DNA of 24,011 nt from a virus. Its lineage: Duplodnaviria; Heunggongvirae; Uroviricota; Caudoviricetes. Where the stretch lies: IMG/VR virus record IMGVR_UViG_2744054854_000003, positions 1 through 24,011 of that record; one strand, given 5' to 3'. Position 1 is the first letter of the stretch; each line of letters starts with the position of its first letter. The notes under the pieces were generated by a model, which ran no database searches, was not told where the DNA came from, and was given only the letters and a program-made list of their open reading frames with translations. Positions 1-18,917 of this stretch are shown piece after piece. The position numbers and the translations under genes are program-made.

Positions 1-97
1 TGCTGCTCAGCTAAACAACAGACCGAGAAAGACACTGAAGTTCAAAACACCGAAAGAGATAATTGAAAGGGGTGTTGCATTGACAGATTGAATCTAC

Positions 98-433
98 AGT
101 AGCCTTTTTTAATATTTCATTTTCCATTTCAATACGTTGTAGCTTTTTCCTGAGCTCACGGATTTCAATTTGTTCCGGGGTAATGGGGGAGGCTTTTGGT
201 GTTTTTCCCTGCCGCTCATCACGTAATTGTTTCACCCATCGCGTCATTGTGGAAAGGCCGACATCCATAGCGCTGGCTGCATCTGCCACGGTGTAATTCT
301 GGTCAACGACCAGTTGAGCGGATTCGCGTTTAAACTCTGCGCTGAAATTTCTTTTTTTCATTATGGCACCTGTGTTGTTCTGAGGTGAGCATATCACCTC
401 TGTTCAGGTGGCCAAATTCAGTAAACCACTTCA
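98..433 (-). mobile_element. IS3-family (IS911-like) left-end fragment with the 5' part of orfA
   Basis: Minus-strand ORF reads [29 protein letters not shown]...EILKKAT, which I recognise as an IS911/IS3-group OrfA N-terminus. A terminal TGAAGTGG (reverse complement of 426-433) resembles an IS3-family inverted-repeat end. Protein similarity stops abruptly after KKAT near position 98, so the element is truncated. Confidence 0.6.
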
Positions 434-747
434 GAGGGAAACGTTCAAAAGCAACCGCCGGGAAAATGAAGGCTGAAGGGCAGAAAAAAGGTTATCCGGA
501 CATGAGTCTCGATAAAGCATGCGGTATTTATCACGGCATGCGAATTGAGCTTAAAGAACCAAATGGTAAAGCCCCGACGAAAGAGCAGATCGCCTGGATG
601 CGCAGGCTTAGAGAGGAAGGTTACTACGTCGTTCTTGCGTATGGTGCAGAACAAGCGATAACCGCCATCCTGGAATACATAAGCCTTAAAAAGGGTGAGG
701 CTATTGAGCATGTATTGAACGGCGACAAGTGGTTGTATGCTGCTTAA
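434..747 (+). pseudogene. VRR-NUC-like nuclease domain protein, 5' end replaced by the IS terminus
   Basis: ORF 385-747 contains a GYPD...IELKEPNGK...Q..W segment resembling the VRR-NUC (PD-(D/E)xK) core. The first 16 codons of the ORF lie inside the IS terminal repeat, so the native N-terminus is missing. Confidence 0.4.
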
Positions 748-752
748 AATAA

Positions 753-769
753 TAAATTAATTAGTGCAT
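753..769 (-). promoter_or_regulatory. C1 operator-like site (weaker match, TTAGTGCAT variant)
   Basis: Reverse complement ATGCACTAATTAATTTA, about 13 of 17 positions matching the P1 C1 operator consensus ATTGCTCTAATAAATTT (consensus from memory). Confidence 0.3.
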
Positions 770-813
770 ATGTGCTCTTTGATATAGCGCACATTAACAT
801 CGGGAGAATAATT

Positions 814-969
814 GTGTCATCCAAGGCTAATTATGAATCGCTGGCATCGATCATGCCGCGTAATGAACAGGAAGCAGATGCTGTAGTGGACCCGGTAATC
901 GCTGAAATGAATGCTCGCCTGGAGGCTGAATTTGCAGCTGAGAATGAACATACCACCCAGGGCGACTAG
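814..969 (+). CDS. Small hypothetical protein (about 51 aa)
   Basis: GTG at 814 preceded by GGGAG with about 8 nt spacing, in frame with track ORF 772-969. No recognisable domain. Confidence 0.3.
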   Translation: MSSKANYESLASIMPRNEQEADAVVDPVIAEMNARLEAEFAAENEHTTQGD

Positions 970-1573
970 GACTGTTTTTTGTGTCGGTAGCGGTCCGTCA
1001 CTCACTCGTGAGGACTGTGCTGCTATAGAAAAAACTGGCTGTTCAATCATCGCGGTTAACAATTCCTGGCAGATGTTCGATGACATTTATGCCTTATACG
1101 CCGGTGATTTGTCATGGTGGAAGCAATACGGATCCACCATACCGGGAGGGAGATTCCGCAAAGTGACAGCCAACCTGGCGGCGGCGAAATCATTTTCGTT
1201 GGAGTACAGGCGATATTGTGGACCGGCTGAAGGGGTTAATAGCGGCGCGCAGACTATCAGTCTGGCGGCTGAATCAGGGGCTGAAGTAGTTGTATTAGTC
1301 GGCTATGACTGTTCTCTGCAAAACGGCCTTCATTGGCATGGAGCACACCCTCAAGCCCTACGGAATCCTACGCAGGTGTCTATTTCAAAATGGCAACAGC
1401 AGTTCCTGGATACCCGCAAAAAACACGCAGATTTACATATTTTGAATGCAAGTAGGAGCAGTGCAATTCAATGTTTCCCAAGAATAAATTTAGAGGCAGT
1501 GATCGCGTTATTATCGTCGGCAGTGGCCCAAGCGCCGCAAACTTTGTTGCGCCGCGCGGAGTGCCGATTATAG
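944..1573 (+). CDS. Hypothetical protein, paralogue A of a tandem pair (GSGPS...IAVN...LVGxD motifs)
   Basis: Track ORF 911-1573 with a likely start at ATG 944 (MNIPPRATRTVFCVGSGPS). Shares an ordered motif set with the next gene. A Rossmann-like or DUF115/MptE-like fold is a tentative guess only. Confidence 0.5.
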   Translation: MNIPPRATRTVFCVGSGPSLTREDCAAIEKTGCSIIAVNNSWQMFDDIYALYAGDLSWWKQYGSTIPGGRFRKVTANLAAAKSFSLEYRRYCGPAEGVNSGAQTISLAAESGAEVVVLVGYDCSLQNGLHWHGAHPQALRNPTQVSISKWQQQFLDTRKKHADLHILNASRSSAIQCFPRINLEAVIALLSSAVAQAPQTLLRRAECRL

Positions 1574-2097
1574 CGGTCAATGGGGCCATCGACTGGCTGA
1601 ACCGCGCTTCTTATTTTTTCACACTTGATCCATCGCCAGACAATATGCGGCGCGTTGGTCGTGGCCGCCGTCGCCGTGGTGTTTGTTATTGCATGGCACT
1701 ACCCGATGTTAAAGAACGTGAAGTCAGAGATGGCGTTCTGTGCTTCCGTCGTGTGGCTGAACGCGGCACAGAGCCAAAAAATACGAATTCTCCCGAGTGG
1801 TGGGCGTGGCGCTGGTCCGCACATTTCGGCCTTTGCGAAGATGAGAATGAAATTTCCAGCGGCAATAGTGCATATGGTGCTCTGAACCTGGCTTTCCATA
1901 TCGGATTCAAACATGTAGCCCTTGTGGGCGTTGACGCTACGCAAGAACTACGCGTTCACTCCGGCGGCACGCCAAAAAATCTAAGTCACCTGCCTTTGTT
2001 ATTCCAGTCTGCGCGTGAACAGATTGACGTTGTTTCATGCGGGAAAATGGGAGGTATTCCGCAGATGACTCTTAAAGAATGGCTGAAGAATACATGA
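1471..2097 (+). CDS. Hypothetical protein, paralogue B of the tandem pair, with an Arg/Gly-rich insert
   Basis: ATG 1471 preceded by AGGAG with about 11 nt spacing. Motifs [18 protein letters not shown] are present, with an extra 34-residue stretch ([12 protein letters not shown]...) relative to paralogue A. Overlaps the end of paralogue A by 103 nt in a different frame. Confidence 0.5.
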
Positions 2098-2771
2098 TGG
2101 CACCCACAATTTATCACCGTATCGACGGTACCAAATACAGGAATGTCTGGGTTGTTGGTGATCTGCATGGTTGCTACACCAGACTGATGTCCGAACTCCA
2201 TCGTGTGGATTTTGACCCGGCGCAGGATTTACTGATATCGGTCGGCGACCTTATCGATCGCGGTACTGAAAATGTCGAATGTCTGGAACTATTGCAGATG
2301 CCCTGGTTCAGGGCAGTGATGGGGAACCATGAGCGGCTGATGATTGATGCGTTAAGTCCAGATGGCAACGTGAATAACTGGCTAATGAATGGCGGACAAT
2401 GGTTCTTCATGCTGGACACTGATCAGGAAATATTAGCCTGGGCGCTGGTGGAGCTGGTAAAGCGTCTGCCCTATATCATTGAGTTGAACACCGGGCAAGA
2501 AACTATCGTTATAGCCCATGCCGACTATCCGGATAATGAATACCAATTCGGTAAGGAGGTGCCGCTTTTCAACGTTGTCTGGGCGCGCGAGCGTATCAGT
2601 GATTCGATGGATGATATTGGTGGCGAAATTTCGGGCGCAGATCGTTTTATCTTTGGTCACACTCCGGTGAAAAGCCCGAAGACATTCTGGAATCAGCAGT
2701 ATATCGACACTGGTGCCGTATTTTGCGGAAACCTGACATTGATGAAAGTGAAAGGTGATGGTGCAGCATGA
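2094..2771 (+). CDS. ppp: Ser/Thr protein phosphatase, lambda-PPase-like metallophosphoesterase
   Basis: GDLHGC, GDLIDRG, GNHE and GHTP motifs, and strong resemblance to lambda phosphatase as I remember it ([15 protein letters not shown]...). Start 2094 taken as an ATGA overlap with the upstream stop; the track start is 2079. The symbol is by analogy to P1 ppp. Confidence 0.85.
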
Positions 2772-3469
2772 AGATTGCTTTAGTTTTTCGCTCTGGTGGT
2801 GACTATAACGCTTCCGATGTGCAGTGGCTGGTTAATCAACTGCCAAAAGGCTATGAAATTATTTGCCTGACAGACCTGAAGCGTTTACATGTACCTGGCG
2901 TCAAAGTTGTCCCATTGATCAACCAGTGGCAAAAGTGCCGTGGCTGGTGGGCGAAAATCGAGTTGTTCCGACCGGATATAACAGATGATCTGTTCTATCT
3001 GGATTTGGACACAGTTATTGCCGGTGATATACGCCCAATCCTTGAGAATCCACCAACCAGCTTCACCATGCTTAGGGATTTTTACCATCCACAATATCGT
3101 GGTAGCGGTGCCCTGTGGATACCAAATAGTGTAAAAGCGCATATCTGGAGTTCATTCTGGCAAGATCCGGAAGGTTGGATTTCTCGTTGTGTCACTACTG
3201 AGTGCTGGGGTGATCAGGGGTTCTTACGGAAGGTTATGGGCGATGATACACCAGCATTTCAGGATCTGTATCCAGGATGGTTTGTAAGTTACAAGGCCGA
3301 TGTTGTGGAACCTGGTTCAAAATATGCGAGCGCGCGTTACTCCAGGGGGAATGGGGCATTACCAAAGGACTGCCGAATAATCTTTTTCCACGGCAAACCG
3401 CGACCTCGCGAAGTGTCAGAGGATTGGCTTCCCCTTATTAGCTCGTTTTTTGAGCGAGAATCAGAATAA
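2768..3469 (+). CDS. Hypothetical protein (pmgQ position), possible glycosyltransferase-like DxD motif
   Basis: 233-aa ORF whose ATG overlaps the ppp stop (ATGA). Contains YLDLDTVI, reminiscent of a nucleotide-sugar transferase DxD motif; this is weak evidence. Confidence 0.55.
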
Positions 3470-3470
3470 T

Positions 3471-3536
3471 ATTGCTCTAATAATTCCATATTTTTAAAAC
3501 GTGATGTACACTCATCACGTTTTTTATTAGAGCAAT
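3471..3536. promoter_or_regulatory. Two inverted C1 operator matches flanking a hairpin
   Basis: ATTGCTCTAATAATTCC at 3471-3487 on the plus strand, and ATTGCTCTAATAAAAAA on the minus strand at 3520-3536. Between them sits a hairpin (AAAACGTGATG / CATCACGTTTT, 3496-3523) followed by a T-run. Confidence 0.6.
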
Positions 3537-3550
3537 CCAAAAGGTGCACT

Positions 3551-3769
3551 ATGTGGCCATTCCGACGGAAATATCACTACTGGCTGATCGCCTTTGTTAC
3601 GCCGACCGGCGGTATCAGGCATGTCATCACCAGGTATCGCAACAAGAGACTCACCTTAGCCAGAATTTTACAGGCTGCCATAGGTGAGGGACTGGATACA
3701 AATTGCGTAGTCCTTCCTCCTTCATACTTAGGAAAAATGACCGAAGCACAAGCTAATACGGAACTTTGA
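3551..3769 (+). CDS. Small hypothetical protein (72 aa)
   Basis: ATG preceded by AAGGTG; ends 1 nt before the next start. No domain recognised. Confidence 0.35.
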   Translation: MWPFRRKYHYWLIAFVTPTGGIRHVITRYRNKRLTLARILQAAIGEGLDTNCVVLPPSYLGKMTEAQANTEL

Positions 3770-3770
3770 A

Positions 3771-5033
3771 ATGAGCACTTCAGCACAAAACCAATCAATC
3801 GAAAATGTATCTATCCCTGATGTCCTGAATGCCGGTATCCCGGCCATTATCCAGAACATCCGGGCCGCGCAACGCCGCGTTAGTTGTGATGACCTCACAG
3901 CACGTTTTTTTGATAATGCGGTTCAGTCAGCGGAGATGCTTCACGCACAGCTTATTGATGTTTATAACGCAGAAGCTGATAGCCATAACTCCCTGGTAGA
4001 TGCAGCTGAAAATATGCAGTTGGATCTCGGTCTGAAGGGTAAAGAAATTGAAGAGCTTCAGCTGGAAATTGAACATTTGAAACGCCAGCAACAGGACGCG
4101 ATCGACGATGCGACGCATGACGCCAACCAGCGTGCTGATAATGCCGAACGTATAAGCATTGAGCTGGAAACAAAACTCAATGAAATGACCGCGATGGTTG
4201 AACTGCGGAACTCACAGATTTCAACGCTAAAATCTCAATATAAAGAGATCATGAAACTTGATCCTTTTAACCTTGAGAAACGCTATAACAAAGCTAAAAG
4301 CGAGCGACAGGAACTGCGTAAGCAGGTCGCTGACCTTAACCAACAGCTCAAAAAAACTATTAAAGATGCAAGCGAAGCGCGCGTGGCATTTGCTAATAAA
4401 AAAGCAGAGGTTACTGCGCTGGTTAATGAGAATGCCAAATTTGCGACGCTCAAGAAGGAAATGTATGGCATTACTGAGCGCCGTTTCCCTGCAAGCAAAC
4501 TTCATCCGACGTTAGGGCAAATCTCCTTCTTCCCGCGCCTCCTGGCTTATGGGATCTCATCGCCTAAAGAGTTCAATAACGAGCGTCCTTATATCGTTTC
4601 TAAGCTGGACTTTGCTTATCAGTTCTGCTGCGACATGGGCTATGCCATTGATATCCGGATCAACGAATGGCTGATGCCAAACTTCCAGCCGTTGGCCATT
4701 TTCCGCGAGTTCCAGCCGGAAGGTTGGGTAGAGTTCTTCCATGAATTGATCTGTAAAGAGATGGAAAGCCGCCGCCCGGAACTGGTCCGTCGAGTTGAGT
4801 GGGCGCAAGAGGTTATGTTGGCAGAGGCAGAGCTGCCGTTCGAACCGGAATTTATTGATAATCTGGCAGCTAAAGGGCTGCATACCCTGTTTGATGTGGT
4901 TACCCGCCGTCATGAGCAGTTGGTTGTCGAATTGGGTTTAGAGGAAACAGCGGCAAGAAGACTTCTCGATGTTTGCTATGCACGTAGCGATGCATGGGAA
5001 AAAGAGAACGGCGGCACTATTTACGTTCGCTGA
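3771..5033 (+). CDS. Hypothetical protein with a coiled-coil-rich N-terminal half (420 aa)
   Basis: Long ORF with heptad-like charged composition in residues about 60-230 (LQLEIEHLKRQQQ..., QELRKQVADLNQQLKK). The C-terminal half is unrecognised. Confidence 0.6.
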   Translation: MSTSAQNQSIENVSIPDVLNAGIPAIIQNIRAAQRRVSCDDLTARFFDNAVQSAEMLHAQLIDVYNAEADSHNSLVDAAENMQLDLGLKGKEIEELQLEIEHLKRQQQDAIDDATHDANQRADNAERISIELETKLNEMTAMVELRNSQISTLKSQYKEIMKLDPFNLEKRYNKAKSERQELRKQVADLNQQLKKTIKDASEARVAFANKKAEVTALVNENAKFATLKKEMYGITERRFPASKLHPTLGQISFFPRLLAYGISSPKEFNNERPYIVSKLDFAYQFCCDMGYAIDIRINEWLMPNFQPLAIFREFQPEGWVEFFHELICKEMESRRPELVRRVEWAQEVMLAEAELPFEPEFIDNLAAKGLHTLFDVVTRRHEQLVVELGLEETAARRLLDVCYARSDAWEKENGGTIYVR

Positions 5034-5105
5034 TAGTTACAGTGTCACTTTTAATGCTGGTGGAGTGCTCCCACCAGCATTTTTTTCGTCCAATGAGGAG
5101 GGCAT

Positions 5106-5612
5106 TTGAGTATTTTCAATAAACACGCACACCAGGAACGTCCGTACATCGTCATAGTAGATATTGATGGGACGATATCAGAGGCAACGGAAGACAGGCT
5201 GCATTTACTTCCACCACCTGGCAAAGGTGCATTAACAGAGCACTGGAACGAGTTTAACCTTGCCTGTGACACTGATGCTCCCATCACTCCAGTTATTGAT
5301 ATGGTGCGCCAGTTATTTAACGTTTACACGGTCTGGTTTGTAACCGGGCGCTGTGAGATCGCAAGGGATAAAACACGAGCCTGGCTGCGGAAGTACGTAA
5401 CAAACGGGGCTGAGCCTTTGCTATCTATGCGTCCTGCCACCGATGACAGAAATGACGGTCCAGCAAAGATTGATCTCCTGAAGAAAATTGGTCTAAGTAA
5501 AATTGCGTTCGCGCTGGAAGATAAGATTGAAGTGGCGCGTGTGTTCAGGAGTCATGGCGTACTTACATTAATGGTCAGGGAGTATGAAAATGCGCTTCTT
5601 CATCAACAATAA
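5106..5612 (+). CDS. HAD-superfamily phosphatase-like protein
   Basis: TTG start preceded by GAGGAG with 6 nt spacing. N-terminal VIVDIDGTIS matches the HAD DxDG(T) motif I; motif II-like VWFVTGR follows. Possibly equivalent to P1 pap, by position. Confidence 0.6.
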   Translation: MSIFNKHAHQERPYIVIVDIDGTISEATEDRLHLLPPPGKGALTEHWNEFNLACDTDAPITPVIDMVRQLFNVYTVWFVTGRCEIARDKTRAWLRKYVTNGAEPLLSMRPATDDRNDGPAKIDLLKKIGLSKIAFALEDKIEVARVFRSHGVLTLMVREYENALLHQQ

Positions 5613-5628
5613 TTGTTCTAATAAATCT
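5612..5628 (+). promoter_or_regulatory. C1 operator-like site
   Basis: ATTGTTCTAATAAATCT, 15 of 17 matches to the consensus. It overlaps a possible -35 TTGATT (5627-5632) with a -10-like TAAAAA 17 bp downstream. Confidence 0.5.
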
Positions 5629-5650
5629 TGATTTTTAAAACAGAGAAAGT

Positions 5651-5683
5651 AAAAATAAAAACATGCCGCAAGGCGCGGCATGT
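5651..5683 (-). terminator. Rho-independent terminator, effective on the minus strand (hsdR operon end)
   Basis: 8-bp GC-rich stem CATGCCGC / GCGGCATG with a 5-nt loop. On the minus strand it is followed by a long U-run (plus-strand AAAAATAAAAA at 5651-5661); the plus-strand side has only TTT. Confidence 0.6.
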
Positions 5684-5710
5684 TTCCAATCAATCACAGG
5701 AGCTGAAAAT

Positions 5711-5797
5711 ATGAACACGGCATTCAAAATCATTATGGCCGCGATCTATTTCTGGCTGTTCTCTATCACTTTTGACGGCATCGTCGCGCATGGGTAA
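5711..5797 (+). CDS. Candidate small hydrophobic peptide (28 aa, MNTAFKIIMAAIYFWLFSITFDGIVAHG)
   Basis: ATG at 5711 with AGGAG at 5698-5702 (8 nt spacing). A single predicted transmembrane-length hydrophobic stretch. Below the ORF-track size cutoff; unproven. Confidence 0.3.
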   Translation: MNTAFKIIMAAIYFWLFSITFDGIVAHG

Positions 5798-5876
5798 GGG
5801 GAGTATATTAGCCATTTGGAACCCCACGAGCTCTTGCGGGTTTAATTAAGAACCCGCAAGAAAAACACGAATTGGG

Positions 5877-8800
5877 CTATATTTTTCCGCCTACGCCTTT
5901 AAACTTCTCAATAAACGAGACGATTTTCTGGAAAACTGCCTGTTTTTTCGTTTTATATTGCGGATTCAACGGACTAAGTTTTGGTAATGTTTCGTTTAAT
6001 TCTGTGCCATTTTCGGTGGCGTATTCGCGTTTTAAAGACGTGCGAATATAGCGTTTTGCTGCATCTTCATTGAGATTTTCTTCTTTTATCAATGCTTCTG
6101 CTTCACGTTGCTGTTCGCGTTGAGCAAACGTAAAGAATGCCTCAATGATACTGGCTTTGTCTGGTAAATCATCCAGGTTCGTTTGCTGAATAAAATCGAC
6201 CACCAGGCCCTCTTTCGCCCGGTTCCCCAGGCTTGAACGAATTAAGCGTTTGACCTCTTCGATCATTTCGCCCTTGCCTTTATTTTGTCTGTTGTGTTCG
6301 AAAATCAGTCCAAGGATATAATCCAGGTTTATTTCCTGAGACTTCAGCAAATCGACCTCAAAAACCACGTCATCCCAGTCAGTGGTTGATTTTTCTTTTT
6401 TATCAGCTTCTTTCTCGCGGCGCTGCCAGTCGCGAATATCGTTATAGGCAGAACGATAATCCTGAATCTTGCGATCAGCAGGGAGACGAATTGTTTGCAA
6501 TTCAGCGAACTTTTCATCATCCACATAATGTTCTGCTTTGAATTTTTCTACCGCAACAGGATCGCTAAGATCGATTTGTTGCAGGGCTTTTAGCGTGGCA
6601 AATTCATCATAGTTTTGCAGGATGTTCTCGGCACGCAGGTATTCGCCAAACAGTTTAACGAAGTCTTTCTTCTCTTTTTCACTTTCAATACTGGTAGGGT
6701 CAGGGAACCGTTGTTCCAGTTCTGAAACTACTGTCATGAAGCCGCGTTTAGCTTCACCAGTAGCAGCATCAGTAAAGCCTTCCATATACTCTGTATAACT
6801 CTTTTCTAACACCACATTTTTGGTGTTTTTGTCACCAAACAGCGTTATGGCATCAATAGTTGAGCGTTCCAGATCCCGGAAAGTGACGATATTACCGAAG
6901 GTTTTAGTTGCATCATAAATACGGTTGGTGCGGGAAAATGCCTGCATCAGGCCGTGAAAACGCAAGTTTTTATCGACGAATAGCGTGTTCAATGTTGGAG
7001 CATCGAAGCCGGTTAAAAACATCCCCACGACAATTAGCAGATCGATATCCTGATTTTTAACCCGCTGGGCTAAATCACGATAGTAGTTCTGAAAACCGTT
7101 ACTGTCGGTGCTGAAGTTAGTTTTAAAATGGCTGTTATATTCACGAATTGCAGCGTCCAGAAACTCTTTAGCACTGCTGTCCATTGCGCTGGTATCAAAA
7201 GTTTCATCGGAAATTTCACCAATGGCATTTTGTTCTTCATTAGCGGCAAAGGAGAAGATTGTCGCAACACGCAGCGGTTTATAGGTAGCCGATTTATTAG
7301 CGGCTTCCTCTTGTAACCGTTTAAACGTCGCATAATAGGCTTTTGCAGCATCCACGCTGCTTACTGCCAACATAGCATTAAAACCTTTTGAGCCAGGGAA
7401 GGTACGGTGGGTTTTCTGGCGGAAATTATTCAGAATATATTGCGTGATTTCCTGAATACGCATGGGATGAAGAAACGCCTGCTGATTTTCAGCCGCACTT
7501 AGTTTTTTCTCGTCAGTTTCTGTCTCTAAAGACTTAAACTGTGGCCGCACATCGTTGTAGTCCACCTTGAATTTGAGCACTTTTTCGTCACGAATCGCAT
7601 CGGTAATTACATACGAATGCAATTCACGACCAAATACGCTGGCGGTTGTTTCTGAGCCTAAGGCGTTTTCCGGGAAAATAGGGGTGCCGGTAAAACCAAA
7701 CTGATAATAGCGTTTGAATTTCTTCTTCAGGTTTTTCTGCGCTTCTCCAAACTGGCTGCGGTGGCATTCATCAAATATAAACACCACTTGCTGATTATAT
7801 ACAGGCAGGTCGCTTTCTGCTTTCATCAGGTTATTGAGTTTCTGAATAGTAGTGACGATAATTTTGTTATCGTCCTTATCCAGATTTCGTTTAAGGCCTG
7901 CGGTATTTTCCGAGCCGTTGACGCTGTCTGGCGAAAAACGCTGATATTCCTTCATGGTCTGGTAATCGAGGTCTTTCCTGTCGACCACAAAGAAGACTTT
8001 ATCAATAAAGTCCAGCTCTGTTGCCAGACGCGCGGCTTTAAAGCTGGTGAGGGTTTTACCAGAACCGGTAGTGTGCCAGATATACCCACCGCTTTCCGGT
8101 TTTGACCAGTTCTTCGCTGTAAAGGAACTCTTAATTTTCCACAGAATGCGCTCGGTGGCAGCAATCTGGTACGGTCGCATCACCAGTAGTGTCTGACTAC
8201 TGTCAAACACGCTGTAGTTCACCAGAACATTCAGCAGAGTATGTTTCTGGAAAAAGGTGGCGGTAAAGTCTTTGAGGTCTTTAATCAGCGTGTTGTCTGA
8301 TTTCGCCCAGTTCATGGTGAAGTCAAAACTGTTTTTATCGCGCTTTGTCGTGTTGGCAAAATAACGGGTATCGGTGCCGTTGGAAATGACGAACAGCTGC
8401 AGATACTTAAACAGGGAATTTTCGCTGTTAAAACTCTCTTTACTGTAACGATGTATCTGGTTGAAAGCCTCACGAATCGCCACCCCGCGTTTTTTTAGTT
8501 CGATTTGCACCAGCGGTAAACCATTAACCAGGATCGTGACGTCATAACGGTTAGCATGAGAACCCGTCTGTTCAAACTGCTGGATAATCTGCACCTTATT
8601 GCGCATGAGATTCTTTTTATCTATCAAATAGATGTTCTCAAGTCGCCCGTCGTCAAAAATAAAGTCGCAGATATAGTCGATATGGATTTTACGGGTTTTA
8701 TCCAGAATACCATCGCTGGGGTTGTCCAGATACTGCTCCGTGAAGCGCCGCCACTCGCTGTCATTAAACATCACACCATTGAGGCTCTGAAGCTGTTCCC

Positions 8801-8993
8801 GAACATTGGACAGCATTGCCGACTGTGATTTTACGGAAATAAATTCATAACCCTGATTCCGCAGGTCCTGAATCAGTTCACGTTCCAGGTCCGATTCGCT
8901 CTGGTAGCTGTCGCTTGTTTGCTCAGCTTTGATGTACTTATCAAGGACGATAAAGTTATTGGATTCAGCAATGGTGTGTGTTTGATGAGTCAT
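5877..8993 (-). CDS. hsdR: Type I restriction enzyme R subunit (1038 aa)
   Basis: Walker A ([12 protein letters not shown]) and DEAD-type box ([12 protein letters not shown]) helicase motifs. The length matches EcoR124I HsdR as I recall it. Has its own upstream intergenic region of 121 bp. Confidence 0.9.
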
Positions 8994-9114
8994 AGCGCAT
9001 CCTTTGTGCCGCCTGGCAAGAGCCGGAAGGGCGTTAAGAGTGACTTCCGGCGCGTAAAAAATAGTCTATATACTGACCGGGTGTTAAGGTGGCCCGATCG
9101 GTAGCAATGGTCAA

Positions 9115-10317
9115 TTAATTACTGACAGTTTCAGGTTTCGGGAAACTGAAAAGTAAATCACGGTAGTATTCGTATTGTTTCTGGCGCAACTCGATTTCAC
9201 GCGGAAGGCCTTCGGTGATGGAGTTTGTCAGGTTGTAAAATTTATCCATCGTGGCGACGATATAAAGTTGTTCATCGTATGATGGGATAGGTATTTCAAA
9301 TGCTCTCAACGATTTTAAACCTAAGTTTTTAATAGTTGAACCTGTTTTTTGATTTTCAAAATACTGTTTTGCGTAATTGGTTTGCAGGAAATAGAAAAGA
9401 TATCTAGTGTGGAGTTCAGGTGATTTAATTTTAAAATAGGCCACAGACTTACCGAGTACGATCTTCTCATTATTGTAAAAGGAAACATTTCCAATTGTGC
9501 CATTAATTGACAGGAAAACAGTATTTATTGGGTCAAAATGAATTCCGTGTTTTTTAAACATAGAATCATTAACCTTTTTTGTGTTATCGTTAAATGATAT
9601 TTTTTGATAGCCTAAATTGTTTCCATTGATAAAGAAATAATCACCGTTGGCGTCATATTCTGGAGTACCATGCAAACCGTCTCCAATTACACATAGCTCT
9701 CCTAATTTCAGACGTTTAACATCGTGGGCACCAAAACTAAATAACCGGTCGCGATAGTAGTTGTACTGTTTTTTACGCATGTTAAGCTCAGCGGTAAGCT
9801 CAGCGGTAAGTGCAGTAAATTTGTCCAGAATCCGAACGATTTCAGACTGGATGGCAAGGGATTTTTCCGGATTATCCGGGCAGGGGATTGGTACAGGTAT
9901 CTCAATTAATTGTCCTTTAGTTAATTTTGCCCTTCCTCCCCCGGTAAGGAAGGGAAGGAAATTAACGATGCATAAATAATGATATAGAAATCTAGAATGA
10001 ACTCTTTCTTTTCCTCGTACGACATGAACATGGTTGTTTGCCCAGAATTTACCAGTTGCATATTGAATTGAATAATTTTCTAAACTAGCCGAGCCATCTT
10101 CTGCAATTAAGACATATTCACCATCGTGGGTATATCCATCCACATAGTCTTGAATGTTGTTAGCACCATAATAGGGCGTCTCGCCTGCAATGCGCAAAGA
10201 GGCTTTTACTGGCTTTCTTCCATTATTCGCTATTTCGAAGAGTGAAGTATCACCAAGATTTCTCCACTCAACTTCAACCCCATCCAGCAATTTTTCCAGA
10301 TAACTTAACTCGCTCAT
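9115..10317 (-). CDS. hsdS: Type I R-M specificity subunit (400 aa), type IC-like
   Basis: Central conserved region with a TAELTAEL repeat, and the duplicated YYRD(R/L)LFSF motif at mid-protein and C-terminus, as in EcoR124-family HsdS. Its start overlaps the hsdM stop. Confidence 0.9.
9784..9816 (-). repeat. 12-bp tandem repeat (2 copies plus a degenerate third) encoding TAEL-TAEL in hsdS
   Basis: AAGCTCAGCGGT occurs twice (9784-9795 and 9796-9807), followed by AAGTGCAGT. The minus-strand translation is [11 protein letters not shown]. Confidence 0.85.
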
Positions 10318-11876
10318 TTCTGCACCTCGCAGCCTTCAATTTCAGCCACAATCGCATCAATATCTTTACGCAACAGGTCGATTTTGCTGACCGTGGTTTT
10401 CAGCTCTGCGTTCAACTCAGCAATATCGATAATTTCGCGGTTATCTTTCGCTTCCACATAGCTGCTCACCGACAGGTTATAGTCATTAGCGACAACGGTC
10501 TCAAACGCGACAGATTTCGCCAGATGAGCAACATCTTCCTTGCTGGCAAATACCTGCATAATCTGTTCGATATGGGCATCGGTCAGGGTATTGTTGTTAG
10601 TTTCTTTTTTAAACAGCTCGCTGGCATCAATAAACTGAACTTTGGTATCCGTTTTATGTTTAGACAGCACCAGAATGTTTACGGCAATAGTGGTGCCAAA
10701 GAACAGATTCGGTGCCAGTGAAATCACGGTTTCGACATAGTTATTGTCGACCAGATACTGACGGATTTTCTGCTCTGCGCCGCCACGGTAAAAAATACCC
10801 GGGAAGCAGACAATCGCAGCACGACCTTTGGCAGAAAGATAGTTCAGCGCATGTAGTACAAAGGCGAAGTCAGCTTTTGATTTGGGGGCCAGAACGCCAG
10901 CAGGGGCAAAACGTTCATCGTTAATCAGCGTCGGGTCATCACTGCCAATCCATTTCACCGAATATGGCGGGTTAGAAACGATGGCATCAAACGGTTTTTC
11001 ATCTCTGAAGTGCGGCTCAGTCAGCGTATTGCCCAGCTTGATATCAAACTTGTCGTAGTTGATGTTGTGCAAAAACATGTTCATACGCGCCAGGTTATAG
11101 GTCGTATGGTTGATCTCCTGACCAAAAAAGCCTTCTTCGATGATATGGTCATCAAACTGCTTTTTCGCCTGTAACAACAGCGAACCGGAACCTGCGGCTG
11201 GGTCGTAGATTTTGTTAACGTGGGTCTGCCCGTGCATAGCCAGTTGTGCAATCAGCTTAGAGACATGCTGCGGTGTAAAAAACTCGCCGCCTGACTTACC
11301 AGCATTCGCCGCATAGTTAGAAATCAGGAACTCATAGGCATCGCCGAACAGGTCAATCTGATGTTCGTTGAAGTCACCAAGTTTTAACCCTTCAACCCCT
11401 TTCAGAACCGCAGCCAGGCGGGCATTTTTATCCTTAACGGTGTTACCCAGGCGGTTACTGGTGGTATCGAAATCAGCAAACAAACCTTTGATGTCAGCTT
11501 CTGAAGGGTAACCGTAAGCAGAACTTTCGATAGCAACGAAGATACTGTTTAAATCTGCATTCAGTCTGTCATTGGTATTTGCTTTCGCAGCTACGTTGCA
11601 GAAAAGCTGACTTGGGTAGATGAAGTAGCCTTTAGTTTTGATGGCATCGTCTTTAATGTCATCAGTAATTACGCTGTCATCCAGTTTCGCATAACAGATA
11701 CTGTCATCACCGGCTTCAATATAGCTGGAAAAATTTTCGCTGATAAAACGGTAGAAAAGTGCGCCCAGAACGTATTGCTTAAAATCCCATCCATCGACCG
11801 AACCCCTGACATCGTTAGCAATTTGCCAGATTTGACGATGAAGCTCTGCACGTTGTTGAATACTTGTCATTTTCAT
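10314..11876 (-). CDS. hsdM: Type I R-M N6-adenine DNA methyltransferase subunit (520 aa)
   Basis: NPPY motif (SNPPYSVKW), AdoMet-binding glycine-rich motif ([10 protein letters not shown]), and a typical HsdM N-terminus. The length matches EcoR124I HsdM as recalled. Confidence 0.9.
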
Positions 11877-12015
11877 CCACTTATTTCAGGCTTATGTAAT
11901 TGGATGTGATTCTACAGCAACTTGGATGCTTTAGCAGTTCGGACATTAGGCTACGAATGACCTGCCTAGAGGTTTGTTAAGCCGCAAAGTGCTGGTGCTT
12001 TATGCCTGTGAAGTT

Positions 12016-12050
12016 TATAATTGTGTACACATAACGAGTACACGAGGTGT
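12016..12050 (+). promoter_or_regulatory. phd-doc promoter and operator region
   Basis: Perfect TATAAT at 12016-12021, immediately followed by the palindrome TGTGTACACA (12022-12031) and a second GTACAC-containing half-site. SD GAGGTG precedes the phd ATG. Confidence 0.6.
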
Positions 12051-12052
12051 TT

Positions 12053-12274
12053 ATGCAATCCATTAACTTCCGTACCGCGCGCGGCAACCTTTCTGAAGTG
12101 CTCAACAATGTTGAAGCCGGGGAAGAGGTTGAAATCACCCGCAGAGGCCGTGAGCCAGCAGTAATTGTCAGCAAGGCTACTTTCGAAGCCTACAAAAAAG
12201 CGGCGCTGGATGCTGAATTTGCATCCCTGTTTGACACCCTGGACTCCACCAACAAGGAACTGGTTAACCGATAA
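12053..12274 (+). CDS. phd: Antitoxin Phd (73 aa)
   Basis: [56 protein letters not shown]... recognised as P1 Phd. Its stop overlaps the doc start (TAATGA). Confidence 0.9.
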
Positions 12275-12654
12275 TGAGGCATATATCACCGGAAGAACTT
12301 ATTGCGCTTCATGATGCGAATATAAGCCGCTACGGCGGCCTGCCGGGAATGTCAGATCCGGGCAGGGCAGAGGCCATTATCGGGAGAGTCCAGGCCAGAG
12401 TTGTGTACGAAGAGATCACCGACCTTTTCGAAGTCTCCGCCACCTACCTGGTGGCTACTGCGAGAGGGCATATATTCAATGATGCCAATAAGCGTACCGC
12501 GCTAAACAGTGCGCTGTTATTTCTACGCCGTAACGGGGTGCAGGTATTTGATTCACCTGAACTGGCAGACCTTACTGTAGGCGCTGCGACTGGCGAGATA
12601 TCTGTATCTTCTGTCGCCGACACGTTACGTAGATTGTATGGTTCTGCGGAGTAG
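12274..12654 (+). CDS. doc: Toxin Doc (126 aa), Fic-fold kinase
   Basis: Fic motif HIFNDANKR is present. Length and position immediately after phd match P1 doc. Confidence 0.9.
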
Positions 12655-12658
12655 ATTA

Positions 12659-12838
12659 ATGGCACGCAAATACAACAAATTGTCCCGTGAAGCGTTAAAG
12701 ATGCTTCTTGATGGCGTGAGTCGCCGCAAGGTAAAGCAATACCTGGTTGGTAAGCAAATTGGAGTCAGGACCGCTATTGCTGTGTTATGCCGTCAGGAAA
12801 TGGTTGCGCTTAAACAGAGAATGCCGGGCAGCAGATAA
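12659..12838 (+). CDS. Small hypothetical protein following doc (about 59 aa, basic)
   Basis: ATG 12659 is in frame within track ORF 12638-12838 (MARKYNKLSREALKMLLDG...). Possibly pdcA, by position only. Confidence 0.4.
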   Translation: MARKYNKLSREALKMLLDGVSRRKVKQYLVGKQIGVRTAIAVLCRQEMVALKQRMPGSR

Positions 12839-12865
12839 AGCCCAATCAGTGATGAAAGGTGTGAT

Positions 12866-13909
12866 GTGAAAGCCGTAATTACTCCCTTTGTACAGAAAGA
12901 GCTTGGCCTCGCCACGTTCAAAGTGGATCAGGAGGTCAGAAAGCTGGTGGAGGCTGGCCGTAAATTTATTATGGAGCCGGTGCCGCGTGAGTTAATCGAG
13001 CACATGGAAGACGGCCTCGTTGTTACCGAGCAAACCATGGCAACAAATGAGGCGTTGCAGCCGTTTTTTAACAGCGATGAACTGTTTCGCCGTATTGGTG
13101 GAATTGACGCGCTGGTGGCGTGGTTGCGTAGGAAAGAGGGTCAATGCCAGGCCGCAGATCGTAGTTGGTGTGACAACCATATTGTCCACGCTGAACGAGA
13201 CAATAGCGCGGTGTTGTTGTGCTGGCATCACGATAACCATTATCGGATGCGTGGTTTTAATGAGCTGAAAGAAACGCTGCACAATAATCGCGTTAACTGG
13301 ATACTGGATGTCGCCCGTCAGGAAATGGGCCTTTCAAATAGCCATGATTTAAGTATTCAGGAGCTGTGCTGGTGGGCTTTCATGCGCAACATGATGCACC
13401 TGATGCCGGAAGAAGTCTGCCGCATATCAATAAATAAGATGAAGGCTACTCCGCAGGATAGCGGACCTCTGAAAGAGGCGGATATTCGCCCGTATGACGA
13501 TCGCGCTACAGCATATGTTCAGATGATGGAAGAACGCGCCGCGCCGATGCGTGCAAAAGTATGCCCTGTGGATGTTGACTCCGACCCTGGCATGGCGCAT
13601 TTCAAAATACCAAAACTGCAATCGCTAAAATTACCTGAGTACATGGACTTTGTTGCTTCCCGTCCATGCTGTGGGTGTGGAGCTGCGGGAGCTGGCGCTC
13701 ACATTACGCCTTATATCGTTCGTCATAGTCGATTATGCGCGCATGACATTTACGCAATTCCTCTGTGCCAGTCATGCCAGCGTGATATTGAGCGTGACCG
13801 CGATAATTGGGAGAAGACGCACGGTAGGTTGGCGATGCATCAACGATTGTTCTTTGATTACGCGCTTGGAGTGGGCGTTATCACAAGTCATTCGTCGAGT
13901 GTTAGATAA
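12866..13909 (+). CDS. pdcB: Hypothetical Cys/His-rich protein (347 aa), pdcB position
   Basis: GTG start preceded by AAAGGTG. Contains CDNHIVHAE...CWHHDNH and a C-terminal PCCGCG...CAHD...CQSCQ cluster suggesting a zinc-binding or HNH-like module. The symbol is by position in the P1 order (phd-doc-pdcA-pdcB-lpa) as recalled. Confidence 0.55.
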
Positions 13910-13910
13910 A

Positions 13911-13927
13911 ATTGCTCTAATGTATTG
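13911..13927 (+). promoter_or_regulatory. C1 operator upstream of lpa
   Basis: ATTGCTCTAATGTATTG; the first 11 positions match the consensus exactly. Located 70 bp upstream of the lpa ORF. Confidence 0.6.
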
Positions 13928-13997
13928 CTATTTCTTTAATCGAGGGTATTATATTCCACGTTGATTAGTTGACATGGGCTAATCAGTAGGTGACAGG

Positions 13998-14450
13998 ATG
14001 TTACTTAACTGGCAGGGACGCCACTTCATGGAAATAAATCACTCACGAATAACATCGTACGAGATTGCGGATTACATGATCCGCACTAAATCTCTTCTAT
14101 CAGCGAAAGAACTCGCAGCAATTCTTGAAAAGGAATACCCGCATCTGGATGTCGATAAGCGCGATGTTTATCTGCGCTTAAAGGCTATCGCTGTGTCTAA
14201 GTATTCGTCTGTTTTGATTGATGACAGTACACGCCCACGTAGATTTCAGATCCACTCTCTGAATCCTGAATTCTTTCGCCGTAGCCGCGCTCCGCGCCGG
14301 TTTGATGAAAAACTCCAGAATGAACTCTATATGACGCAGGACGAAAAGGAACGCCGGGAGCACCAGCCTTGGGTGATGGCGCGTCAACTTTTCAATAAGG
14401 TGGTCCGTCAGCACCGTCATTACGGTAATGCCACATCCGCACGTATCTGA
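13998..14450 (+). CDS. lpa: Late promoter activator Lpa (150 aa)
   Basis: Position immediately upstream of pacA, a C1 operator upstream, and size consistent with P1 Lpa. The start may instead be the internal ATG at 14028. Confidence 0.65.
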   Translation: MLLNWQGRHFMEINHSRITSYEIADYMIRTKSLLSAKELAAILEKEYPHLDVDKRDVYLRLKAIAVSKYSSVLIDDSTRPRRFQIHSLNPEFFRRSRAPRRFDEKLQNELYMTQDEKERREHQPWVMARQLFNKVVRQHRHYGNATSARI

Positions 14451-14535: not shown

Positions 14536-15729
14536 GTGACCTGGGACGATCACAAGAAGAATTTTGCTCGCCTGGCGCGAGATGGTGGTTACACCATCGC
14601 ACAGTATGCCGCCGAGTTTAATCTTAACCCTAATACCGCACGTCGTTATCTCCGTGCCTTCAAAGAAGACACCAGGACTGCGGACAGCCGCAAGCCAAAT
14701 AAGCCAGTCAGGAAGCCACTAAAAAGCATGATCATTGATCACTCTAATGATCAACATGCAGGTGATCATATTGCGGCTGAAATAGCGGAAAAACAGAGAG
14801 TTAATGCCGTTGTCAGTGCCGCAGTCGAGAATGCGAAGCGCCAAAATAAGCGCATAAATGATCGTTCGGATGATCATGACGTGATCAACCGCGCCCACCG
14901 GACCTTACGTGATCGCCTGGAACGCGACACCCTGGATGATGATGGTGAACGCTTTGAATTCGAAGCTGGCGATTACCTGATAGATAACGTTGAAGCGCGG
15001 AAGGCCGCGCGCGCTATGTTGCGTCGGTCCGGGGCCGATGTTCTGGAAACCACTCTTCTTGAAAAGTCTCTTTCTCATCTCCTTATGCTGGAGAACGCCA
15101 TGGATACGTGTATTCGCCTGGTGCAGGAAATGCGCGATCAGCAAAAAGACGATGATGAAGGTACTCCGCCTGAATACCGTATCGCGAGCATGCTAAACAG
15201 CTGTTCCGCGCAGATAAGCAGTCTGATCAACACCATTTACAGCATCCGGAATAACTATCGAAAAGAAAGCCGGGAGGCGGAAAAGCACGCTTTGTCTATG
15301 GGGCAAGCTGGCATTGTTAAGCTGGCATACGAACGAAAGCGTGAAAATAACTGGTCAGTGCTGGAAGCAGCTGAATTCATCGAGGCGCATGGCGGGAAAG
15401 TGCCGCCCCTGATGCTGGAGCAAATCAAAGCAGATCTGCGTGCTCCTAAGACAAATACCGATGATGAGGAAAGGCAAACTGCCGTCGGTGGCCCTTCTCT
15501 TGAAGATCTGGACAAAGTTGCGCGAGAACGGGCCGCCAACCGCCGCGCCGATGCTGCATTGTGGATTGAGCAACGTAGGGAAGAAATCGCCGATATCGTT
15601 GATACAGGCGGTTATGGAGATGTTGATACTGAAGGTGTATCAAACGAACCATGGCTGGAACAAGACCTGGACGAAGACGAGGAGGAAGACGAAGAAGTTA
15701 CCCGCAAGCTATACGGGGATGATGATTAA
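14536..15729 (+). CDS. pacA: Terminase small subunit PacA (397 aa), contains the pac site
   Basis: GTG start with AAAGGAAG upstream. 397 aa as in P1 PacA. The GATC-hexamer pac site lies inside it, and the acidic C-terminal tail overlaps the pacB start. Confidence 0.85.
14729..14887 (+). other. pac packaging site: two clusters of GATC hexamers (4 plus 3)
   Basis: GATC at 14730, 14737, 14749 and 14764 (left cluster) and at 14860, 14872 and 14883 (right cluster), each mostly within a TGATCA/G hexamer. This matches the known 4+3 architecture of the P1 pac site. Confidence 0.85.
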
Positions 15730-17213
15730 TGGCCAGAAGTTGCGTAACGGATCCACGTTGGCGCGAGCTGGTGGCGCTATATCGTTATGACTGGATTGCG
15801 GCCGCTGATGTTTTGTTCGGCAAAACACCTACCTGGCAGCAGGATCTGATTATTGAGTCTGTGCAGGAACAGGGTAGCAAGACATCTGTTTCGTCTGGCC
15901 ACGGTACCGGGAAATCAGACATGACTTCTATCATGATCATGTTGTTCATAATCATGTATCCCGGTGCCCGAGCCATTATCGTTGCGAACAAAATTCAGCA
16001 GGTAATGACCGGTATATTCAAGTACATCAAGATAAACTGGGCTACTGCCACCAGCCGTTTTCCATGGCTTGCTGATTATTTTGTTCTGACAGAAACCGCT
16101 TTCTATGAGGTTACTGGTAAAGGTGTATGGACTGTAGTACCGAAGGGCTTTCGTCTGGGAAGTGAAGAAGCTCTCGCCGGTGAACACGCAGATCATCTTC
16201 TGTATATTATCGATGAAGCCTCCGGTGTCAGTGATAGAGCTTTCGGTATCATCACCGGTGCTCTTACCGGACAGGATAACCGCATCTTATTGCTGTCACA
16301 GCCTACACGCCCAAGCGGCTATTTCTACGATACACACCATAAACTGGCCAAGCGTCCTGGTAACCCTGATGGCGTTTATACGGCGATCACGCTTAACAGT
16401 GAGGAATCACCGTTGGTAACGCCAGCATTTATCAAAATGAAGCTGGCGGAGTACGGCGGGCGTGATAACCCTATGTACATGATTAAGGTACGCGGCCTAT
16501 TCCCTAAATCACAGGATGGCTTCCTTCTTGGACGTGATGAGGTTGAACGTGCAACGCGGCGGAAAGTCAAGATTGCAAAAGGATGGGGCTGGCTTGCATG
16601 TGTGGACGTTGCTGGTGGTACGGGACGGGATAAGTCCGTTATCAATATCATGATGGTGTCCGGCCAGCGAAATAAACGCCGTGTAATCAACTATCGAATG
16701 CTGGAATACACAGACGTTACAGAAACGCAGCTTGCCGCCAAAATTTTCGCAGAATGTAATCCTGAGCGATTCCCAAATATCACCATAGCGATAGACGGCG
16801 ATGGCCTGGGTAAAGCAACGGCGGATCTGATGTACGAGTATTATGGTATTACCGTACAGCGCATACGCTGGGGTAAAAAGATGCATAGCCGTGAAGATAA
16901 GAGCCTGTACTTTGATAAACGTGCTTATGCCAACGTTCAAGCCGCAGAGGCCGTAAAATCTGGTCGTATGAGACTGGATAAGGGTAATGAAACTATTGAG
17001 GAAGCGTCGAAAATCCCTGTAGGGATTAACTCCGCAGGTCAATGGAAGGTGATGAGTAAGGAGGATATGAAGAAAAAACTCAACCTGCACTCACCAGACC
17101 ATTGGGATACATATTGTTTCGCTATGCTGGCGGATTATGTTCCCCAGGATGAAGTGCTTAGCGTCGAAGACGAAGCGCAGGTTGATGAAGCTCTGGCATG
17201 GCTTAATGAGTAA
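15729..17213 (+). CDS. pacB: Terminase large subunit PacB (494 aa)
   Basis: 494 aa, with its start overlapping the pacA stop (TAATG). Size and position match P1 PacB. Confidence 0.85.
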
Positions 17214-17219
17214 AAAAAA

Positions 17220-17236
17220 CTTGCTCTAATAAATTG
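17220..17236 (+). promoter_or_regulatory. C1 operator at the start of the antirepressor module
   Basis: CTTGCTCTAATAAATTG, 15 of 17 matches. It is followed by TTGACT at 17244-17249. Confidence 0.6.
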
Positions 17237-17366
17237 CGTTTTTTGACTGCCGATGTTACATTGAACCTGACCTCTTGCGCCTTGAGGCATTTTCGGTTTA
17301 TGCTTATCAGGCACCTCATTAAAACGGGTGCCGGGATTGGCCTCCCGCTTAAGTCTAAGGCGATAC

Positions 17367-17389
17367 AGACGCCGCTCGCGTCTTTTTTT
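17367..17389 (+). terminator. Intrinsic terminator or attenuator hairpin with a 7-T run
   Basis: Stem AGACGC / GCGTCT with a 5-nt loop, followed by TTTTTTT (17383-17389). Lies in the leader between the operator and the 74-aa gene. Confidence 0.5.
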
Positions 17390-17554
17390 GTATCGGCGTA
17401 CACGCACACCTCTACAATGGTGGGCTGTATGGGGCTACCTTCGGGTAGGCTGGTTACCTTGGACGCCAGTAAGGCCAACTCCGTACAGTCCACCGCCAGC
17501 AAGATTGGTCTCTTCTGCGGTGGTTACATACCAACGTCTAAGGAGGCTGCCATT

Positions 17555-17776
17555 ATGGCTACTATCCCTACCCCAACTCATCCTGAATTTATCTGGCGCT
17601 TTTACTCCTGCCAGAAACGTCACTATCACTTCGTTATCGCAACAACAGAAGATGAGGCACGTTCTCAGCTTCCGGATGCTCCCTGCATTTTCTCCGCACG
17701 CTTTTCTACTGACTCGCGCAATTCTCTCAGTTACTGGTGCCTCCCTGTTAACGCTTCTGTTCAGGAGGGGCTATGA
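17555..17776 (+). CDS. Small protein (74 aa) translationally coupled to the antirepressor gene (icd-like position)
   Basis: Strong SD AAGGAGG 8 nt upstream of ATG 17555. Its stop overlaps the ATG at 17773 (ATGA). An in-frame upstream ATG at 17418 is possible. Confidence 0.5.
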   Translation: MATIPTPTHPEFIWRFYSCQKRHYHFVIATTEDEARSQLPDAPCIFSARFSTDSRNSLSYWCLPVNASVQEGL

Positions 17777-18885
17777 GAACGTCATTAGTCACCCGTGAAG
17801 AGATGATCGAGGCAATTGAACCGCACACAATCTGTATCAGCACCAGGGATATTCCCGGTGTTATAGCCAATTACTTCATGATCACCAAACAACTCTACAG
17901 GAGAAAGGACAAGAACGCGGTTCACCGTATCCTGCTGTCTGATATCCGCGAATACCTGCTCGAACAGGGGCATCTGAATTACGCAACCGTCGCAGCCGAA
18001 ACACGCAAGGAGGCACACAGAATGAAAGCTACTAACGTTAAATCAGAAAAAGTTCATGCACCTTCAGTTCAGGAATCAGAGCTGGTGGTTGTTCAAAATC
18101 AGCCTGATGAAATTCCCGTTCTGGAATGGCAGGGAGTACGCGTCGTAACGACCGAAACTCTTGCTAAGGGGTATGGAACCGAAACTAATAACATCAAAGT
18201 TAACTATACGCGTAATGCTGATCGCTTTGAGGAAGGTAAACATTACTTTCTACTAACTGGTTCAAAATTAAGAGAATTGAAGGACAAGGTTACTCAAAGT
18301 AACTTAGTCGCACCGCGAGCAAAGCACCTCACTCTCTGGACGGAGCGTGGCGCAGCCCGCCACGCTAAAATGCTCGAAACCGATCAGGCATGGGCATTCT
18401 TTGAAAAACTGGAAGACAGCTACTTCCGGCAAAAAGAACAGCAACCGGTTGCAATCCCCCAGACGCTTCCAGAAGCTCTGCGCCTGGCTGCCGAGTTGGC
18501 TGAACAAAAGCAGCTACTGGAACAGAAGGCCCACCAGCTAAATCAACAACTGGTGGCCGCAGCCCCCAAGGTCGATTTTGCCGACCGGGTATCAGTAGCT
18601 AAAGGGATCCTGATTGGGAATTTTGCAAAGGTTGTTGGACTTAAGCAAAACGCGCTGTTTGCCTGGTTACGGGAGAACGGCATCCTGATTGCGTCCGGCG
18701 GACGTAAAAATGTGCCGTTCCAGCAGTACATCACCGCGGGGTATTTCACGGTGAAAGAAGTGGTGCTGGATGATGAAGATGGCTACCAGATACGGTTGAC
18801 GCCTCAATTAACGGGTAAAGGCCAGCAGTGGTTAACTCGCAAGCTACTTGATGCTGGCTTGTTAAAACCGGTGGCGGCTGAATAA
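17773..18885 (+). CDS. ant: Antirepressor-like protein (ORF6N-like and ANT/KilAC-like domains), nested in-frame starts giving 370 aa and 287 aa
   Basis: Middle region RNADRFEEGKHYFLL resembles ORF6N. C-terminal LFAWLRENGILIASGG...YITAGYFTVKE resembles the phage antirepressor ANT domain. A second in-frame ATG at 18022 has a strong SD (AAGGAGG). The symbol is tentative. Confidence 0.65.
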   Translation: MRTSLVTREEMIEAIEPHTICISTRDIPGVIANYFMITKQLYRRKDKNAVHRILLSDIREYLLEQGHLNYATVAAETRKEAHRMKATNVKSEKVHAPSVQESELVVVQNQPDEIPVLEWQGVRVVTTETLAKGYGTETNNIKVNYTRNADRFEEGKHYFLLTGSKLRELKDKVTQSNLVAPRAKHLTLWTERGAARHAKMLETDQAWAFFEKLEDSYFRQKEQQPVAIPQTLPEALRLAAELAEQKQLLEQKAHQLNQQLVAAAPKVDFADRVSVAKGILIGNFAKVVGLKQNALFAWLRENGILIASGGRKNVPFQQYITAGYFTVKEVVLDDEDGYQIRLTPQLTGKGQQWLTRKLLDAGLLKPVAAE

Positions 18886-18917
18886 TGGAAGAATGCCCGG
18901 TTGATGCCGGGCATAAT

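Follow-up and report, generated by a model that had tools for sequence, protein, structure and literature searches.

The 12-bp tandem repeat in the hsdS gene of the window, the whole stretch of 24,011 nucleotides of viral DNA analysed here, is very probably the length-setting D1 segment of a type IC HsdS, which belongs to an intact hsd operon of a P1-like phage-plasmid and stands in the two-unit state of a slow specificity switch. In the mechanism that we propose, the gain or loss of one 12-bp unit, whether through slippage during replication of a 28-nt periodic stretch or through an unequal crossover of sister copies, would change the spacing of the recognition site by 1 bp and give rise to a new specificity of both restriction and modification. 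Such switching would take place on an evolutionary time scale, at a pace exceeding that of point substitution in hsdS. Textbooks have covered the TAEL mechanism since the late 1980s; the window allele is an uncharacterised member of this group, and the understanding of type I enzymes is unchanged.

The hsd operon and the repeat within hsdS

The hsdS gene (9115..10317, minus strand) encodes a type IC specificity subunit of 400 aa, recognised as an open reading frame with two Pfam Methylase_S domains, a PADLOC match to Specificity_I (1.1e-119) and a match to the PDB chain 7bst_A (2.2e-71). Upstream lies hsdM (10314..11876, minus strand; 520 aa), which ends in an ATGA that also holds the first codon of hsdS and whose product matches EcoR124 HsdM over its full length (7bst_D, 1156.7 bits), and downstream, 121 nt from hsdS, lies hsdR (5877..8993, minus strand; 1038 aa), the product of which likewise matches EcoR124 HsdR over its full length (2w00_A, 2287.2 bits). 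The resulting order, hsdM-hsdS-hsdR, is that of type IC operons, as in EcoR124. Compared with the solved EcoR124 proteins, none of the three genes is truncated or interrupted. Shuffled sequence has promoter-like sites at least as often as the region around the operon; a single weak sigma-70-like site lies in the hsdS-hsdR gap (9087-9058, minus strand).

Alignment to 7bst_A, the HsdS of EcoR124I (404 aa, two TAEL copies), together with a structural model, divides the protein into a conserved N-terminus, a first target recognition domain (TRD1), a central conserved helix, TRD2 and a conserved C-terminal helix. Residues 1-18, ~139-195 and ~355-400 are identical or nearly so to those of 7bst_A, and in the central conserved region, the TAEL repeats included, the identity is complete. 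TRD1, the N-terminal recognition domain (approximately residues 19-138; 9904..10263, minus strand), recurs at more than 85% identity beside a different TRD2 in 66 of the 120 best homologues, and TRD2, the C-terminal one (approximately residues 197-352; 9262..9729, minus strand), occurs with other TRD1s in 42 of the same 120 and is common to E. coli chromosomal type IC alleles with 1, 2, 3 or 4 TAEL units. Both domains are common modules. The comparison with EcoR124I that had been advised in an earlier reading of this DNA, made from its sequence only, revealed that both window TRDs are unrelated in sequence to those of EcoR124I, and consequently the window half-sites cannot be GAA and RTCG. Nor was a match to the window TRDs found in the three-unit HsdS of plasmid pIP1206, whose motif, like that of EcoR124I, is known. 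The type I systems of ST131 were considered as a guide to the half-sites and rejected, as they are not type IC.

Taken at the level that can be tested computationally, the locus has every feature of a type IC system and appears to be a member of the EcoR124 family with a different TRD pair, in agreement with the assignment of the gene to type IC hsdS in the sequence-only reading. A type I family is formally defined by subunits that complement each other in vivo (PMC12707154), and the near-identity of HsdM and HsdR makes complementation with EcoR124 subunits likely.

The best-scoring tandem array of the window, as detected by Tandem Repeats Finder, spans 9783-9810 with a period of 12, 2.3 copies, 100% matches, no indels and a score of 56, its repeat unit being TAAGCTCAGCGG on the plus strand; no other tandem array was returned by the program in hsdS, hsdM or hsdR. 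In the reading frame of hsdS, on the minus strand, the 33 nt from 9816 to 9784 form 11 codons: ACT GCA CTT, which encodes T168 A169 L170 (9808..9816), and two copies of ACC GCT GAG CTT, encoding T171 A172 E173 L174 (unit 1, 9796..9807) and T175 A176 E177 L178 (unit 2, 9784..9795). The position of the repeat and its TAEL-TAEL translation had been given exactly by the sequence-only reading, to which we add the strand. That reading had also taken the TAL codons for a degenerate third copy. However, EcoR124I has TAL ahead of its units, as has every allele examined with 1 to 5 copies; it is a conserved 9-bp flank and not a decayed unit, and by the convention of the family the count here is two. The unit DNA is identical to the EcoR124 repeat, and repeat and flank together correspond to the published mutagenesis primers for deleting one unit from EcoR124II, accgctgagcttaacatgcg and ctgcacttaccgctgagctt.

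Perfect periodicity extends over 28 nt (9783-9810), lengthened by the last 3 nt of the TAL flank (CTT) and by the A at 9783. A shift of this stretch by 12 positions leaves 16 nt in perfect match, for which the chance expectation in 24 kb is about 24,000 x 4^-16, or ~6e-6 per period tested, so that the repeat is not due to chance. Two uninterrupted TAEL copies are present in 103 of the 120 best database homologues of HsdS, and the TAEL-TAEL segment also occurs in the solved EcoR124I chain 7bst_A. A chance repeat or an assembly artefact was ruled out, the same sequence being kept in hundreds of genomes and in the solved EcoR124I protein.

In the AlphaFold2 model of HsdS (mean pLDDT 85.4) one continuous helix, residues 150-192 (9742..9870, minus strand), holds the TAEL residues 171-178; this is the D1 helix, the putative spacer ruler, and its sequence is identical to that of 7bst_A. 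The same chain is the best structural match of the model, with a TM score of 0.77-0.80 and 33% identity overall. According to the secondary structure of the model, the C-terminal counterpart D2 consists of two helices, residues 347-365 and 371-389 (9151..9279, minus strand), with a kink at EGLP. D1 would pair with D2 in antiparallel orientation, keeping the two TRDs at a fixed distance, and each TAEL unit would add about one helical turn and move the TRDs by roughly one base-pair step. Between DKF and RKKQY the two-unit D1 counts 13 residues, and D2 counts 17 between DKF and RQKQY; a D1 of three units would therefore match D2 in length, which fits the remark in the review literature that three units look like an 'optimum'. 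D2 itself may carry the TAEL-like four-residue rhythm in a degenerate form.

Adenine separation and the predicted target

[quoted passage not shown] EcoDXXI and EcoprrI have three units each, and that copy number alters the spacing by 1 bp has been demonstrated in EcoR124I/II as well as in hybrids of EcoR124 and EcoDXXI (PMC3874165). A 2025 review states the rule with more precision, placing the two target adenines 7 bp apart in the two-unit enzyme and 8 bp apart in three-unit enzymes (PMC12707154, Table 1). Likewise, in the type IC system NgoAV of gonococci the number of LEAT repeats tracks N6 versus N7 motifs among isolates (PMC6789123).

An independent check of the adenine-separation rule is offered by the hsd system of pIP1206, for which the motif CCAG N6 RTTG has been described in work on E. 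coli ST101 (preprint 10.1101/2020.06.07.138552). The pIP1206 HsdS contains three TAEL copies, and the A of CCAG is 8 bp away from the second position of RTTG, a T, as three units predict; that the methylated base of the bottom strand lies at this T is assumed from the half-sites RTCG, RTTC and RTGC of other type IC sites. On that assumption pIP1206 is consistent with the rule. It has three units and yet an N6 motif, which indicates that the TAEL count sets the adenine separation and not the number of N. Accordingly, the proposal of the sequence-only reading that two and three copies give N6 and N7 agrees with the literature on EcoR124I/II, but its measure is the wrong one, and the spacer test that it put forward, expressed as a count of N, is mis-specified; adenine separation is the right measure.

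With two units, the window allele would be in the EcoR124I state, and we predict a bipartite m6A site whose adenines are 7 bp apart. This separation would correspond to N6 only if the half-sites have 3 and 4 bases and the adenines are placed as in EcoR124I. For the window allele both the spacing rule and the crossing-over mechanism are what we infer from the literature. The use of the result lies mainly in annotation: from a two-unit operon of the EcoR124 family an m6A motif with a 7-bp separation may be predicted before any methylome is at hand, and a common shortcut is corrected, the TAEL count giving the adenine separation and not the number of N.

Copy number among E. coli alleles and the pace of switching

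A type IC hsdS is detectable with the window query in 1302 of 5426 complete E. coli genomes, about a quarter. Copy number was read as the length offset from the query in 60 E. coli matches to the hsdS central region, chosen as a spread sample: 37 have no offset (2 units), 18 are longer by 12 nt (3 units), one is shorter by 12 nt (1 unit) and one, from E. coli NT1W22, is longer by 36 nt (5 units). The most informative alleles are those that share TRD2 with the window. Combined with one other TRD1, this domain is found in 15 E. coli genomes, with three units in 12, four in 2 and two in a single genome, the lone two-unit allele having an N-terminal frameshift as well; combined with a second other TRD1, it is found in 6 genomes, with two units in 4 and one in 2. 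Two pairs of sister alleles carrying the window TRD2 differ by the repeat alone. L002 (3 copies) and L003 (4 copies) have 0 mismatches over 1206 nt and one 12-nt indel at the repeat, and L004 (1 copy) and L005 (2 copies) have 0 mismatches over 1182 nt and, again, one 12-nt indel at the repeat. A 12-nt indel accompanied by no substitution implies that gain and loss of units outpace point substitution in hsdS. The spacer ruler is hence an active axis of specificity evolution in E. coli, beside TRD shuffling.

Alleles with one, four and five units lie outside the two- and three-unit states covered by the reviews (PMC3874165; PMC12707154). They are represented by the one-unit allele of strain HKUOPY1 (L004, 278-1459), the four-unit allele of Z1322HEC0001 (L003, 281-1498), next to an hsdM annotated as frameshifted, and the five-unit allele on the NT1W22 chromosome (L010, 418-1653), the first unit of which has a synonymous GAA codon. 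Another unusual hsdS is that of the E. coli W150 chromosome (L011, 430-1665), in whose product a 26-residue stretch appears twice, before D1 and before D2, and a 13-residue N-terminal motif recurs in the middle of the protein; the resemblance of the two halves is unusual, as though recombination between them had homogenised the protein.

The exact TRD1 and TRD2 pair of the window, also that of the protein record WP_047651693.1, behaves differently from the alleles that share TRD2 alone. In a search of 5.8 billion proteins no length variant of this pair (396 or 404 aa) was present among the best matches. The pair was represented by 400-aa proteins on 65, 43, 1, 1 and 1 contigs and by a partial protein on 2 contigs, that is 113 contigs, all of two-unit length; the protein clusters were checked and have no hidden members, and the assemblies are consensus sequences, in which minority length variants are invisible. 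Complete E. coli plasmids contain 4 full-length matches, all of 1203 bp, and the plasmid alleles of the pair are 98.5-100% identical. Strains with this allele on a plasmid include E. coli CT02, E189, E148 and 4314. The description of the locus as poised for copy-number change, made in the sequence-only reading, is thus borne out by sister alleles with the window TRD2 that differ by 12 bp alone, but not by the exact pair, with no variant among 113 contigs.

How fast the repeat may switch is where the possible explanations part. One of them is a fast, reversible phase variation, in which a measurable fraction of the cells in a lysogen culture would have one or three units and the system would serve as a bet-hedging defence or as an epigenetic switch. 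Such a role could draw on the sister alleles that differ by a 12-bp unit alone, with an indel rate above the substitution rate, on the range of 1 to 5 copies that occurs in E. coli, and on the physiology of type IC systems, whose establishment in cells that lack the modification leaves those cells alive (PMC12707154), so that a switch need not be lethal and specificity switches can survive. The repeat itself speaks against it: hsdS genes that act as simple-sequence contingency loci have a long tract of short units with a high rate of shifting, and known repeat-driven phase-variable genes in general have longer tracts, whereas the window has only two units of 12 bp; with so few units in so short a tract the switching rate per generation is probably very low. 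In a survey of repeat-bearing type I systems TAEL is treated as a coiled-coil feature and is not among the phase-variable tracts (PMC7383803), and a length variant is seen in 0 of the 113 contigs with the window TRD pair, a count of consensus assemblies that leaves minority variants invisible. We consider fast phase variation of the window repeat unsupported and very improbable. An extension of the same idea, that cultures of P1-like lysogens are standing mixtures with adenines 6, 7 or 8 bp apart and, more broadly, that the natural one-, four- and five-unit E. coli alleles are active with spacings beyond 7-8 bp, strikes us as a long shot; were frequent switching in lysogens true, a mobile prophage would carry a self-diversifying restriction barrier.

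At the opposite end, the repeat might be a static inherited segment, held at two units by selection or by recent clonal origin, with no role in switching and in a system that is possibly silent. The invariant two-unit length in the 113 contigs and the 4 complete plasmids would be expected of such a segment, as would promoter-like sites that are no more abundant near the operon than in shuffled sequence; in addition, P0005, a copy of the window's allele in the protein database, varies by a point change in its first unit (TAEL to TALL) and not in copy number, its length being unchanged. However, among 21 chromosomal alleles with the same DNA unit beside the same TRD2, copy number has changed on at least 3 occasions, the three hsd genes are intact when set against the solved EcoR124 proteins, and the near-identical plasmid alleles may be a sample too young and too clonal to have recorded a rare event. 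A static segment is accordingly, in our judgement, highly unlikely, and we favor a slow switch that is at present in its two-unit state.

Related systems and the phage-plasmid neighbourhood

The closest known system is EcoR124I of plasmid R124 (PDB 7BST/2W00), with which the window shares near-identical HsdM and HsdR, the order hsdM-hsdS-hsdR, the repeat DNA, the fold and identical HsdS conserved regions, FTAL and the two TAEL units included. In contrast, neither of its TRDs is related in sequence to those of the window, the two HsdS proteins share only 33% overall identity when aligned structurally, and the carrier of EcoR124I is a plasmid (PMC3874165), the window operon lying beside phd-doc in a P1-like phage-plasmid. 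EcoR124II, EcoDXXI and EcoprrI belong to the same family, have the same ruler segment and model the gain of one unit, with adenines 8 bp and not 7 bp apart (PMC3874165; PMC12707154); they differ from the window in having three units and other TRDs. EcoprrI furthermore has prrC embedded in its operon (PMC3874165), a gene absent in the window, where the hsdS-hsdR gap measures 121 nt. A more distant parallel is NgoAV of Neisseria gonorrhoeae, also type IC, in which a four-residue repeat (LEAT/EATL) in the central helix of HsdS varies in copy number by isolate (PMC6789123); the repeat sequence and the organism are different, and the specificity of NgoAV is determined in part by a frameshift truncating HsdS.

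In gene layout the nearest relative is RM.EcoST101IX of pIP1206 (compared as NC_010558), which has the same phd-doc / hsdM-hsdS-hsdR arrangement and the same TAEL unit DNA. Window positions 5718-13143, comprising hsdR-hsdS-hsdM, phd-doc and ~500 bp past doc, are ~96% identical in nucleotide sequence to pIP1206 (L009, 27834-35340) except in the hsdS TRDs. Unlike the window, pIP1206 encodes a 427-aa HsdS with three units and different TRDs, and its operon lies in an IS1-flanked transposon, described as Tn6602 (preprint 10.1101/2020.06.07.138552), on an IncF conjugative plasmid. The ~96% identity points to an addiction-plus-restriction module common to P1-like phage-plasmids and conjugative F plasmids, a phd-doc/hsd block that moves between P1-like phage-plasmids and IncF plasmids.

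To judge from its sequence, the window is a P1-like (Punavirus) phage-plasmid whose hsd block adjoins phd-doc. An E. coli CT02 plasmid (NZ_CP081699.1) coding for C1, terminase, Lpa and Phd/Doc matches positions 1-13784 with 99.99% identity; among phage records vB_EcoM-673R5 comes closest, covering 93% of the window and carrying its own hsd genes, and P1 and P7 cover about half of it. When the phage collection was queried with hsdS no match was obtained in P1 or P7, and a literature search on P1-like phage-plasmids with type I systems returned no relevant report. Beyond the hsd block the window encodes a DUF968 ORF (12866-13909), lpa (13998-14450), pacB (15729-17213) and c1 (18918-19769, minus strand), and between pacB and c1 Pfam identifies an Ash-family ORF (17234-17776) and a putative antirepressor with ORF6N and ANT/KilAC domains (17773-18885). 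The segment with these last two ORFs (17214-18918) is absent from the CT02 plasmid, in which, with respect to window positions 13785-13988, the DUF968 ORF and lpa are separated by inserted IS1 copies and additional genes (L001, 4936-8534). From lpa through pacB the window and the CT02 plasmid are only 89% identical.

Just beyond the end of hsdR, a 168-aa ORF (5106-5612, plus strand) matches the phosphatase domain of polynucleotide kinase-phosphatase (Pfam HAD_PNKP, 1.2e-11), and its neighbour, a 420-aa ORF (3771-5033), has no Pfam match. In phage T4, PNKP repairs tRNA cut by PrrC. The anticodon nuclease PrrC is encoded within the operon of EcoprrI, a type IC system (PMC3874165). Given this repair link between PNKP and PrrC, the position of a HAD_PNKP ORF beside a type IC operon is curious. 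Finally, type IC hsdS genes that contain the window TRD1 and, as deduced from length offsets, two or three TAEL units lie on non-mobilizable IncFIB plasmids of ~110 kb from Klebsiella, the carriers being the K. pneumoniae plasmids pPMK1-B and pRHBSTW-00832_3 (L013 and L014).
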